64,000 nucleotides of DNA from an uncultured Actinomycetota bacterium (GTDB lineage Bacteria > Actinomycetota > Actinomycetes > Propionibacteriales > Propionibacteriaceae). Of the stretch, positions 6,635-27,001 are shown piece by piece. The translations under genes and the position numbers were made by a program. The stretch lies in assembly GCA_963713165.1 (NCBI GenBank), contig CAVQKU010000002.1:566845-630844 (forward strand). Reading direction: 5' to 3'. Position 1 is the first letter of the stretch, and each line of letters begins with the position of its first letter. The notes under the pieces are model-generated. The model ran no database searches and was not told the DNA's origin. It was given only the letters and a program-made list of their open reading frames with translations.

Positions 6635-6808
6635 CCGTCCCAGCGTAGGCGCGCGTCCCGCACCGGGCCCGGGTTCCGTCGAACCCCTGCCACGGTGACC
6701 GCCGCCGCCTCGGCCAGCGCCACCGCCTCTGCCGACCTGCCCCGCCCCTGCCGACCTGCCCCGCCCCGACCTGCGCGTGCCGGCCCCGCTCGTCTGCGCG
6801 TCGGGCCG

Positions 6809-6904
6809 GTCGGTTTACCACGTTGACGTGGTGTTCCTCCCGTGACCGCGGCAAATTCGCTGGGTCCACGGTCGGTTTACCACGTCAACGTGGTAACCCG
6901 ACCG
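6809..6904. repeat. Composite palindromic repeat (hairpin A' - linker B - hairpin A), BIME/REP-like
   Basis: gtcggtttaccacgttgacgtggt at 6809; 17-bp-stem hairpin cggtcggtttaccacgt-ca-acgtggtaacccgaccg at 6869-6904; linker 6841-6870 matches 46473-46502 at 23/30 nt. Confidence 0.8.
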
Positions 6905-24452: not shown

Positions 24453-24572
24453 GATCGCTCATCCTCCCACCGGGCCGCCGGTGGCACCCGGCCGTTCCGC
24501 GTACGGGCCCGCACCCGGACCGGGCGGTCTGCCGTGTCGCGCACGGCCGAGCCGTCCTGCCAGGATGGGACC

Positions 24573-25220
24573 GTGCCCGACCTCGCCGCCGAACGGATGG
24601 ACTACGACGCCGGCACCCTGCGGGAGGAGTCGGCACCGCTCGAGCCGTACGCGCTGTTCGACGCCTGGCTGGCCGACGCGTTCGAGGCGAAGGCGCAGGG
24701 CCGGCTCCCCGAGCCGACGGCGATGGTCGTCGCGACCTCGCTCGGCGACCGGCCGAGCTCACGCACGGTGCTGCTGAAGGCCGTCGAGGACGGCACGTTC
24801 GTGTTCTTCAGCAACTACGACTCGGCCAAGGGCCACGACCTCGTCGTCAACCCGTACGTGGCGCTGCACTTCGGCTGGTACCCCCTGCAGCGCCAGGTCC
24901 GGGTCGAGGGGCTGGCCCGGCGGGTGCCGCGCGAGGAGTCGGAGGCGTACTTCGCCACCCGCCCGCGCGGCTCCCAGCTCGGCGCCTGGGCCTCGGCCCA
25001 GTCCAGCGCCGTGAGCGGTGTCGAGGAGCTCGAGGCGGCGTACGCGCGGGTGGAGCGGCGCTTCGAGGGCGTGGAGGTCCCGTGCCCACCGCACTGGGGC
25101 GGGTTCGGTGTGCGGCCGTCGATGCTCGAGTTCTGGCAGGGCCAGCCCAGCCGCATGCACGACCGCCTCCGCTACGACCGCACCGACCGCGGCTGGTCCC
25201 GCACCCGCCTCGCCCCCTGA
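24573..25220 (+). CDS. pdxH: Pyridoxamine 5'-phosphate oxidase
   Basis: EPTAMVVAT, PSSRTVLLK, FFSNYDSAKG, RQVRVEG, SQLGAWAS, EFWQGQPSRMHDR. Confidence 0.95.
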   Translation: MPDLAAERMDYDAGTLREESAPLEPYALFDAWLADAFEAKAQGRLPEPTAMVVATSLGDRPSSRTVLLKAVEDGTFVFFSNYDSAKGHDLVVNPYVALHFGWYPLQRQVRVEGLARRVPREESEAYFATRPRGSQLGAWASAQSSAVSGVEELEAAYARVERRFEGVEVPCPPHWGGFGVRPSMLEFWQGQPSRMHDRLRYDRTDRGWSRTRLAP

Positions 25221-25225
25221 CGAGC

Positions 25226-25270
25226 ACTGGGTGTGATCGTGCACCGTCACGGTGCAGGATCACCCCCAGT
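25226..25270. repeat. Left hairpin (22-bp stem) with 27-bp core GATCGTGCACCGTCACGGTGCAGGATC
   Basis: actgggtgtgatcgtgcaccgt-c-acggtgcaggatcacccccagt, 2 mismatches; core at 25235-25261. Confidence 0.9.
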
Positions 25271-26226
25271 CCTCACCCGGTACGCGACGACAGCGCGCGC
25301 ACCGCGTGAGGACGCCGTCCCAGCCGTGCTGCTGCAGCAGCCTCGCCGACCTGACGCGCGACCTGGCACGGGCGGCCGACGAGGTCCGCGTGACCGAAGC
25401 GGAGCGTCGCCAGGCCGTCCAGGAGGGCGAGGTTGTCTCGCTCCATGTCGCGGAACCGACCCAGCCCCTCGTGCCCGAGCCGGCCGTCGAGCTCGACGAC
25501 GACCCCGAAGGGGAGGTACAGCACGTCGCGCCAACCGCGGCGACGCCCGGTGGGGGCCTGGCGGGTCCCGTCGGGCAACCCGTGGGCGCGCTCCACGTCG
25601 TGCAGGTAACGGAGCTCGATCGGTGACTCGGCCCCGACGGCGACGTCGGCCAGGAGGCTCTCCAGCAGCCGGCGGTGCGGTGCGCGCGGCCGTGCGGCGA
25701 GGGCCCGCCGCAGGCGCGCGGGCGTCGTCCGGCGGCGCTGCACGGCGGTCGTGAGCCAGCCGACGGCCTCGTCGGGCCGGCCGTCGGCGCACAGGTCGAG
25801 GACGGTGTCCTCGACCGTCGTCCTCGGGGGGTCACCCACCGAGCGCGCTCCGCGGACGCCGGGCCGCTCGCGGCGGAACTCCCAGCCGGCCCTGAGGGGT
25901 GGCTGACGGGTGTGCGGCACCAGGACGCGGACCAGCTCGGGCTCCTCGTCGTGCAGGCCGTGGAGCCGTGCCGCGGCCAGGCTGCCGATGCGTGACCCGG
26001 AGCCACCGAGCAGGACGCCGGCCCAGGCCCGGGCCAGGAGGGTCGGGTCGACGTCGACCATGAGGAAGACCCCCGGCGCGAGGCGTCGCCAGTGACCCTG
26101 GTGCACGAGGCGAGCGACGACACGGTCGGAGAGCCCGTGGCCGAGCGCCTGCTCGCGTGACACGACCTGCGCCTGGGCCGCACCCAGGCCACGGAGGTCG
26201 GCGAGCGCGTTGCGGGACGAGTGCAC
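25260..26226 (-). CDS. AbiEi-type wHTH plus DUF559/Vsr-like PD-(D/E)xK nuclease-domain protein; apparent frameshift near 25341
   Basis: QAQVVSREQAL..GHWRRLAPGVF (AbiEi_4-like), TTVEDTVLDL, AESPIELRY, WRDVLY..VVELDGRLGH..RDMERDN..LRFG; a plausible C-terminus LLQQHGWDGVLTRCARC is one base out of frame (stop 25260), whereas the unshifted frame stops at 25273. Confidence 0.75.
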
Positions 26227-26283
26227 CTCGAAAGTCTCGGCCCGCTCAGCACCCTCCGACCTGGTTGTGCACAGCCGGACATG

Positions 26284-26332
26284 GCCGTGGGTGGGATCCT
26301 GCACCGTGACGGTGCACGATCCCACCCACGGC
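26284..26332. repeat. Right hairpin (24-bp stem); its core is the exact reverse complement of the left core
   Basis: gccgtgggtgggatcctgcaccgt-g-acggtgcacgatcccacccacggc, 1 mismatch; core at 26295-26321. Confidence 0.9.
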
Positions 26333-26343
26333 GGAGACCGGGC

Positions 26344-26958
26344 TCAGATGAGGCCGGGCGTCTGCGCCTTCGCCTTGAGGAAGCGCTCCTGGGCGTCGGC
26401 CCAGTTGACGACGTTCCACCACGCCTTGGCGTAGTCGGCCTTCACGTTGCGGTACTGCAGGTAGAAGGCGTGCTCCCACATGTCGAGGAGCAGCACCGGG
26501 ATCTGCGCGAGCGGCAGGTTGCCCTGCTGGTCGTAGAGCTGGACGACGTTCAGCCGCTGGCCGAGGGCGTCCCAGACCAGCATCGACCAGCCCGAGCCCT
26601 GGATCGCGTTCGCGTTGGCCTCGAACTGCGCCCGGAAGCCGTCGAAGCTGCCGAAGAACTCGTCGATCGCCGCCGCGAGCTCACCGGTCGGCTTGTCGCC
26701 GCCGTCGGGGGACATGTTCGGCCAGAAGACCGAGTGGTTGATGTGGCCGCCGAGGTGGAAGGCGAGCGTCTTCTCCAGGCCGTTGATGGGGCCGAAGGCG
26801 TTCTTGTCACGGGCCTCGGCCAGCTGGTCGATGACCGTGTTGATGCCGGCGACGTAGGTCGCGTGGTGCTTGTCGTGGTGCAGCTGCATGATCTCGCCCG
26901 AGATGTGCGGCTCGAGAGCGCTGTAGTCGTACGGGAGATCAGGGAGTGTGTACGCCAT
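26344..26958 (-). CDS. sodA: Superoxide dismutase [Mn/Fe]
   Basis: [45 protein letters not shown]; TATGGT -10 lies 7 nt before the ATG. Confidence 0.96.
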
Positions 26959-27001
26959 GCCCACCACCATACGAAGGGGTGGGGGGCCGCGGCGGTGGGG
27001 G

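Follow-up and report, generated by a model that had tools for sequence, protein, structure and literature searches.

A nuclease gene framed by inverted palindromes of a dispersed family between pdxH and sodA: a candidate REP/RAYT-like unit in an uncultured actinobacterium

What holds a lone nuclease gene together with the two long hairpins, one inverted relative to the other, that enclose it between pdxH and sodA? The locus belongs to an uncultured member of the Propionibacteriaceae, placed in Microlunatus/Friedmanniella by its named relatives (GenBank assembly GCA_963713165.1, here genome G000; 3.62 Mb, 74% GC) and was analysed within a stretch of 64,000 nucleotides (nt) of contig CAVQKU010000002.1, hereafter the window (G000:C2:566845-630844). 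From the letters of this stretch, the original prediction had proposed an element resembling a repetitive extragenic palindrome (REP) with its REP-associated tyrosine transposase (RAYT), but using a PD-(D/E)xK nuclease. As an architecture this proposal is supported: each such gene has its own palindrome family, the site is empty in relatives and solo copies of the palindrome exist. We observe a REP/RAYT-like organisation on an unrelated enzyme, with one gene per family, species-specific amplification, concerted evolution and exchange of whole blocks. With moderate confidence, we regard the locus as one of an actinobacterial class in which an AbiEi-like/Vsr-fold nuclease gene is framed by a palindrome that also occurs as dispersed solo copies, in the manner of REP and RAYT.

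The palindrome pair and the gene that it encloses

The locus is made up of the following features of the window.

about 25222-25274, no strand: hairpin A, palindrome family F1 (covariance-model match G000:C2:592065-592119, E 1.9e-11)
26284-26332, no strand: hairpin B, family F1, inverted relative to A (covariance-model match G000:C2:593125-593179, E 1.5e-11)
25273-26226, minus strand: nuclease gene NUC1, 317 aa, GTG start at 26226 (Pfam AbiEi_4, E 2.5e-6)
25260-25350, minus strand: frameshifted 3' end of NUC1 (nucleotide alignment with the loci L083 and L084, three-frame translation)

The 27-mer GATCGTGCACCGTCACGGTGCAGGATC at 25235-25261 returns as its exact reverse complement at 26295-26321, a coincidence for which 100 shuffles gave an expectation of 0, and the claim that exact inverted copies mark both ends is confirmed. 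The inverted repeat as a whole spans 41 nt at 93% identity (25228-25268 / 26288-26328). Hairpin A has 22 stem positions with 2 mismatches and follows the pdxH stop codon by 5 nt, in the space where this gene and the nuclease gene converge. Hairpin B has 24 stem positions with 1 mismatch and lies 11 nt past the sodA stop codon and 57 nt short of the GTG start of the nuclease gene. On either strand, RNA folding of the two hairpins, 45-49 nt in length, gives energies of -41 to -59 kcal/mol (z -5.5 to -8.2 against shuffles). Each 27-mer had been described as the centre of a long hairpin with a common internal mismatch, and folding agrees with this: on the plus strand the mismatch is G.G in A and C.C in B, and its column in the F1 stem is unpaired in 9 of 22 members. 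The outer arms differ in sequence between A and B, and each arm pair is self-complementary, as had also been noticed.

The interval bounded by the hairpins contains a single open reading frame (ORF), the nuclease gene, and both the ORFs and the Pfam matches agree with the earlier description of one gene flanked by pdxH and sodA. An insertion sequence (IS) or transposon was considered and rejected, as the sole ORF is the nuclease, there is no transposase gene, and the bases that border the two 41-nt repeats on their outer sides (GACGAGCAC / CGGCGGAGA) form no target-site duplication. A simple scan of 24900-26700 for promoters and terminators detected neither, and thus no intrinsic terminator (GC-rich hairpin plus U-tract). 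Rfam returned nothing above the gathering score for the hairpins, only sub-threshold generic matches to miRNA precursor models.

The start codon of NUC1 is consistent with three homologues. Residues ~1-200 are AbiEi-like, with a winged helix and the AbiEi C-domain; PADLOC AbiEi matches residues 7-185 (E 7.5e-16), and Pfam AbiEi_4 (PF13338) is joined by a weak AbiEi_1 match. The AlphaFold model, made with 54 homologues, reaches a predicted local distance difference test score of 89.6 and is low at residues 304-317. When this model was compared with the PDB by Foldseek, the first ~200 residues matched the AbiEi structure 6y8q (E 3.7e-5), and residues ~215-300 matched both NGO0050 (3hrl; prob 1.00, template modelling (TM) score 0.77, root-mean-square deviation 2.5) and the catalytic domain of I-Bth0305I (3r3p; prob 0.99). 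D234, E245, D247, G248, H252 and D260 are invariant in the 54-sequence alignment. Pfam DUF559 (PF04480) does not match NUC1 even at E 10 and is weak in 5 of the 54 homologues (best E 0.003), and NCBIfam has no match for NUC1. The predicted fold and the conserved D..ExDG..H residues lead to a model of NUC1 in which a DNA-binding module of AbiEi type is joined to a nuclease with the Vsr/DUF559 fold. The original assignment of the two ends thus stood for the AbiEi N-terminus, by the AbiEi_4 match, and for the Vsr/DUF559-like C-terminus by structure prediction; a Pfam DUF559 match was the part that failed to appear.

The 3' end of the gene carries an apparent +1 insertion near 25340-25350, ~20 codons before its end and unnoticed in the original prediction, which would put the conserved tail LLQQHGWDGVLTRCARCRRVPGEDWG and its stop out of frame. 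Aligned with the proteins encoded at the same site elsewhere (six syntenic proteins), this out-of-frame tail, ending in HGWDGVLTRCARCRRVPGEDWG and a stop, holds a nearly invariant G, W and CxxC. The ancestral frame ends with a TGA at 25260-25262 (minus strand), so that its last codons and stop fall within hairpin A. Among public sequencing runs, none was found with the NUC1 locus; the best share was 0.14, probably sodA. With a frameshift near its end and a palindrome family of only 8-9 sites, NUC1 gives the impression of a weak or decaying representative of its class.

The NUC1 protein family comprises at least 1657 relatives at E <= 1e-5, whose source labels read 'AbiEi antitoxin domain-containing' or 'very-short-patch-repair endonuclease'. 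Many metagenomic homologues, among the matches listed (P0002-P0120), sit on contigs of 1.1-1.5 kb, about one cassette long, a length that fits assembly breaks at repeated flanking palindromes.

Five nuclease genes and their palindrome families

A tblastn search with NUC1 yielded no paralogue in G000. This result was misleading, as distant paralogues surfaced in the control of a flank-repeat test. In this test each homologue had its two flanks, upstream and downstream, compared with each other, the null being mismatched pairs and the threshold their 99th percentile. A repeat match between both flanks was found at 34 of 47 homologue loci of the genus and at 54 of 77 loci from named genomes (70-72%), compared with 16 of the 2232 control ORFs of at least 200 aa in G000 (0.7%). 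The four top-scoring control ORFs turned out to be four further AbiEi_4-nuclease genes. The five genes of G000 and their framing families are as follows.

window 25273-26226: NUC1, framed by family F1, 8-9 sites
G000:C11:622211-623194: P2, framed by family Fx, 3 sites
G000:C6:119417-120433: P3, framed by family F4, 22 sites
G000:C9:350945-351856: P4, framed by family F5, 10 sites
G000:C11:556876-557850: P5, framed by a composite of F2 and F3, 56 and 19 sites
window 6808-6904 and ~46476: copies of F2/F3 (GGTTTACCACGTYRACGTGGTAAACC and, within a longer sequence, GGCAGATCTGCC), at G000:C2:573652, 573714 and 613320

P2-P5 each combine an N-terminal AbiEi_4 domain with a D…E-F-D-G-K/R core; their identity to NUC1 is 27-32%, and a comparison of profiles also relates them to it (hhalign E 1.5e-4). 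Each is bounded by a different palindrome family which is likewise dispersed, so that the suggestion of a cognate hairpin family for each paralogue is met with agreement in 5 of 5 G000 genes. Conversely, every multi-copy long palindrome family that an unbiased hairpin census of G000 detected has a framed nuclease gene.

P5 is bounded by F2+F3 composites in inverted order. F2 was found in 55 copies in G000 and in none of the 60 other species of the genus. The closest homologue of P5 (68% identical) is encoded in G059, Microlunatus spumicola, and it was predicted ahead of the search that the palindrome framing this homologue would be abundant only there. Sixty copies were detected in G059, 5 in G056, 1 in G021 and 0 in the 58 others. 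Composite inverted ends of the same two-palindrome design, with differing arm sequences, are present at 6 of 6 P5-type loci.

The genome search for the 27-mer of NUC1, which had been proposed at the outset, gave 4 additional core sites in G000, and a covariance model brings family F1 to 8-9 sites in total. Solo sites are found at C2:689978, C6:12204, C6:131428, C11:856407, C5:140526 and C5:199946; all F1 sites are intergenic, just past the stop codons of genes. Compensatory substitutions preserve the stem: in the 22 members compared, drawn from five genomes, both sides have changed at 15 of 22 pairs, a value reached in 0 of 500 shuffles. In the same members, 89.6% of the stem cells are paired, compared with 34-44% when the partners are slid. 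The tip GCACC…GGTGC (GCACC-N5-GGTGC) is invariant in all 22 and forms a 15-bp tip. The covariance model of the F1 superfamily has matches in 15 of 61 genomes and none in the other 46. Each genome with more than ~4 such sites (G000, G014, G056, G009 and G044) has a nuclease gene directly flanked by them, G059 being a partial exception.

The closest species to G000 in the sample is G014, at ~88% nucleotide identity. When these two genomes are compared, some F1 solos prove to be orthologous yet diverged, one is plainly present in one genome and absent from the other, and several lie at synteny breaks. The same hairpin sequence is found at non-orthologous sites, whereas the two hairpins of an orthologous pair differ from each other at 6-8 of 39 positions. 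At the solo that both genomes share after purL, the subtype is TGCACC in G000 and GGGGATGATCC in G014, in both cases the subtype of the genome's own cassette. Given this identity at non-orthologous sites, divergence at orthologous ones and agreement of subtype at purL, hairpin copies are either homogenised or replaced inside each genome. Beside the purL solo, G014 also carries an IS481-type transposase gene with an integrase-core signature (L090 391-1479, G014:C1 ~3302890-3303980); the orthologous site of G000 has the hairpin alone, without such a gene.

At most homologue loci, the palindrome downstream of the gene abuts the stop codon or overlaps with it. In the clear cases, the two flank repeats are direct at 30 loci versus inverted at 13. 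The gene itself is sporadic (0-9 per genome), and many copies are broken. In G017, two paralogous cassettes (L051 on C40 and L055 on C21) are 83% identical in nucleotide sequence, one of them being truncated; the shared stretch runs from ~90 nt upstream of the start codon to just beyond the downstream hairpin. This pair suggests that the unit was duplicated to a second locus fairly recently.

The pdxH-sodA site in relatives

The genes on either side of the NUC1 cassette are the following.

24561-25220, plus strand: pdxH, pyridoxamine 5'-phosphate oxidase, left neighbour (Pfam PNPOx_N E 3.4e-23, PNP_phzG_C E 1.7e-18), 93% identical to the G014 orthologue
26344-26970, minus strand: sodA, Fe/Mn superoxide dismutase, right neighbour (Pfam Sod_Fe_N E 5e-33, Sod_Fe_C E 5e-36)

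The empty site that the original prediction advised looking for does exist: in seven more distant species (L019, L025, L029, L036, L038, L041 and L042), pdxH and sodA stand directly beside each other, separated by 23-164 nt, and in some of these the spacer contains a small hairpin of an unrelated kind. A homologous gene occupies the site in the same orientation in G014, in G056 and on three metagenome contigs. With NUC1 these make six syntenic genes, which form one clade (support 100/100) and are 63-78% identical to each other.

The history of the gene conflicts with that of its neighbours. The pdxH of G014 is 97.7% identical to that of L083, yet their nuclease genes are only 64% identical, and the G014 gene groups with that of G056, whose pdxH is at 81%. 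Between G000 and G014, nucleotide identity falls from ~90-100% to ~65% exactly between the two stop codons. The rate of synonymous substitution (dS) among close relatives is 0.77-0.95 for the nuclease gene versus 0.10-0.40 for the flanking genes. Fast protein evolution was therefore ruled out as the source of the 63-78% identity, dS too being 2-9 times that of the flanking genes. The ratio of nonsynonymous to synonymous rates (dN/dS) of the nuclease gene is 0.16-0.41, and the gene is under purifying selection.

The hairpins follow the gene. The cassette is of the TGCACC type in G000, L083 and L084, of the TTCGRCACC type in G014 and G056, and of the CCGGCACC type in L085, and the hairpin type switches together with the gene allele. 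The hairpins therefore belong to the block, and lineages exchange the hairpin-gene-hairpin block whole. Terminators that belong to pdxH and sodA as fixtures of the site were ruled out, because both hairpins switch with the allele while the flanking genes are 90-100% identical. Insertion into the centre of a single palindrome was also ruled out, each flank being a complete palindrome, and a simple target-site duplication does not fit inverted copies. The original prediction had named four outcomes opposed to it, namely fixed synteny, homologues without flanking palindromes, a unique 27-mer and hairpins acting only as terminators; at none of these points did the data turn out so.

In another family of the order, one site carries the cassette in opposite orientations in L075 (G039) and L078 (G032). 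Identity between the two species is 83-93% in the flanks and 68% in the cassette, with borders at the palindromes.

Two further occupants of the pdxH-sodA space were observed. In G059 (L015), the space contains a gene for a glycosyltransferase family 2 (GT2)-type enzyme and only the sodA-side hairpin of the cassette, and the site is therefore a hotspot for different inserts. In G001 (L020 2145-2712), the spacer has no nuclease gene and holds an array of 567 nt, built from ~five palindromic units that are composite and ~115 nt long, and then a GCACC-type hairpin beside sodA.

Possible mechanism, rival readings and known systems

The domain make-up of NUC1, the invariant tip and the homogenisation pattern together suggest recognition, cutting and copying by repair. 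NUC1, probably dimeric, would bind its own palindrome at the conserved tip (GCACC-N5-GGTGC), in the form of either duplex DNA or an extruded cruciform, and its nuclease domain would nick or cut at that point. Repair by the host, together with gene conversion from other copies, might then keep the copies alike and occasionally make new ones; the same processes could permit a block to be exchanged or flipped. The hairpins may also act as terminators, if so of a kind without a U-tract, and thereby shield the unit from pdxH and sodA. In the broadest form of this reading, which we advance tentatively and rate somewhat below an even chance, the main families of REP-like palindromes in Actinomycetota would have AbiEi-like/Vsr-fold nucleases as their dedicated enzymes. 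This would be a second and independent invention of the REP-RAYT arrangement, each paralogue recognising the tip of its palindrome, cutting duplex or cruciform DNA, multiplying and homogenising its family through host repair (up to 55-60 copies within a species) and driving block exchange.

Several observations weigh against a REP/RAYT-like unit of this kind. The dynamics visible at pdxH-sodA are whole-block replacement by diverged alleles and not transposition, and, the six genes of this locus being one clade, no movement between loci can be seen here. F1 is small, and NUC1 itself is frameshifted. G059 keeps ~17 solos of the F1 superfamily, yet the hairpin of its own nuclease gene has another tip, and G014 retains ~7 TGCACC-type solos despite its TTCGACACC-type cassette. 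The framing copies are direct at some loci and inverted at others, and sister genes may carry arms of different sequence. Finally, the genus sample holds one genome per species, and its lineages are non-independent.

Some of these points are better accommodated by a homing-type selfish nuclease cassette, which would cut a pre-existing palindrome and have its gene copied in by repair, exploiting palindromes without multiplying them. Its fold matches a Vsr-like homing endonuclease (I-Bth0305I), and the sporadic and often broken copies, the conflict of the gene tree with the flanking genes (G014 with G056, in spite of the pdxH shared with L083), the sharp borders of the block, the empty sites, the occupation of one site in opposite orientations in two species and the different arms on sister genes would all be expected. 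We nevertheless consider it unlikely. It leaves unexplained the families of 55-60 copies that are limited to the species whose gene they frame, and why all five recognised palindrome families of G000 have a gene. A simple target duplication would produce direct repeats only, whereas many loci, including that of NUC1, are clearly inverted, and no pair of close relatives was found in which one has a solo hairpin and the other a fresh cassette at the same site.

Less probable still is a host regulator or a single-protein defence nuclease, in which the palindromes would be operators or terminator-type sites that co-evolve with the protein, and nothing would be mobile. Two publications describe AbiEi autoregulation through inverted repeats in the promoter (PMC7319586, PMC3985639). 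The 15-bp tip resembles a dimeric operator, purifying selection would suit a host function, solos at gene ends could terminate transcription, and diversifying turnover of alleles is typical of defence loci. Operators are, however, unexpected at both ends of a gene, or as 55-60 near-identical copies from within one species, and solos are gained and lost between species that are ~88% identical. A repressor needs no conserved nuclease active site, and U-tract terminators were absent from the scan of 24900-26700.

A programmed inversion switch, where the inverted hairpins would be recombination sites toggling the gene or read-through into its neighbours, is very improbable. DUF559 proteins are 14-fold enriched among predicted targets of programmed inversion, according to one study (PMC9881135), and the opposite orientations in G039 and G032 would be in keeping with it, but no invertase is present, the six pdxH-sodA cassettes all have one orientation, flank repeats are direct rather than inverted at many loci, and flipping does not explain solo copies.

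That NUC1 is a type IV AbiEi antitoxin with its toxin lost or separated is scarcely credible and was rejected: the AbiEi_4 and PADLOC AbiEi matches and the likeness to 6y8q are set against the absence of any AbiEii (PF08843) match from the 96%-complete genome, the neighbours pdxH and sodA, a C-terminal nuclease fold beyond the antitoxin domain, and five such genes with zero toxins. On this point the original prediction, which had noted the missing toxin partner and argued against an antitoxin, is upheld. A canonical REP/RAYT element was rejected as well, since no match to the Y1 HUH transposase/RAYT family (PF01797) exists in the genome.

The REP/RAYT-like reading can be placed among known systems. 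The REP/REPIN-RAYT units of Proteobacteria ('REPtrons'; REPINs are REP doublets forming hairpins) share with the present one a single-copy gene flanked by two, often inverted, palindrome copies, a repeat dispersed at gene ends with one family per gene, lineage-specific families with a 'master' sequence, and mostly vertical inheritance at a fixed locus. They differ in their enzyme, which is HUH/Y1 there and an AbiEi-like winged helix with a Vsr-fold PD-(D/E)xK nuclease here. The present palindromes also far exceed REPs in length (45-65 nt, with a composite form in the sister subfamily), lineages exchange the gene together with its repeats as a block, and copy numbers range from 3 to 60 instead of hundreds. 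With Vsr-like (EDxHD) homing endonucleases such as I-Bth0305I (3r3p), the predicted nuclease has in common the catalytic fold, the E..D..H..D residues and the combination of a modular DNA-binding domain with a nuclease; like free-standing homing genes, it lies between conserved genes with empty sites, is sporadic and often decayed, and shows sharp borders of allele replacement. Unlike homing endonuclease genes, NUC1 is outside any intron or intein and has its own framing palindromes with tens of solo copies. A PD-(D/E)xK survey lists Vsr/DUF559 alongside a homing endonuclease (PMC3424549).

The N-terminal winged helix and the domain that follows resemble AbiEi of S. agalactiae (6y8q) and M. 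tuberculosis Rv2827c, and AbiEi binds inverted repeats (PMC7319586); unlike AbiE systems, the present genes have no AbiEii, an extra C-terminal nuclease, and repeats both at the two gene ends and dispersed. Residues ~215-300 share the fold and the D..ExDG..H motif of Vsr/DUF559 (PF04480; NGO0050, 3hrl), here without the context of a partner cytosine methyltransferase and with the nuclease fused to an AbiEi module. In the literature on DUF559/Vsr with AbiEi, on inverted repeats and on RAYT/REPIN in Actinobacteria, no description of a nuclease-palindrome unit was found.

REP-like palindromes are common in high-GC actinobacteria, and to our knowledge no enzyme has so far been tied to them. If nucleases such as NUC1 do make or maintain them, this would explain both a large unnamed protein family and the origin of species-specific repeats, and would constitute a second long-lived partnership of gene and repeat, relying on a PD-(D/E)xK nuclease and host repair instead of an HUH transposase. 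Such genes are mis-annotated as antitoxins, and their framing repeats break metagenome assemblies. Nucleases specific for the sequence of a palindrome or cruciform could serve as tools, and some strains of the genus can be cultivated, among them Microlunatus kandeliicorticis DSM 100723 and M. spumicola JCM 16540.

Two minor features of the genome remain to be described. The first is a motif upstream of the nuclease genes, represented in the window by one site.

26267-26274, plus strand: GTGCACAG, one mismatch from the DnaA-box-like GTCCACAG (motif scan of the genome)

In 5 of 5 such genes of G000, the stretch from the upstream palindrome to the start codon contains a motif of the GTCCACAG type, which may be a promoter element, an operator or a DnaA site. 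GT[CG]CACAG, which matches the core of the actinobacterial DnaA box TTGTCCACA, has 181 copies in the genome, 7 of them within 260 nt upstream of the five genes (1.3 kb), where ~0.03 would be expected. Further sites are at G000 C11:622123, C11:622154, C6:120458, C9:351936, C11:557889 and C11:557921. The motif is often doubled, occurs in either orientation and is also present at homologue loci.

The second concerns two other short dispersed repeats, CGGGAGCGACCACTTTCCGGG and ACCTGAACCCCCGAGCAGGC, which were detected in an 18-mer census with at least 6 copies each and are not obviously palindromic. Their sites in G000 fall into a first group (C2:151924, C2:172897, C2:195015, C5:131037, C5:159345 and C5:427397) and a second group (C2:650364, C4:29303, C5:418980, C5:419448 and C6:99964).

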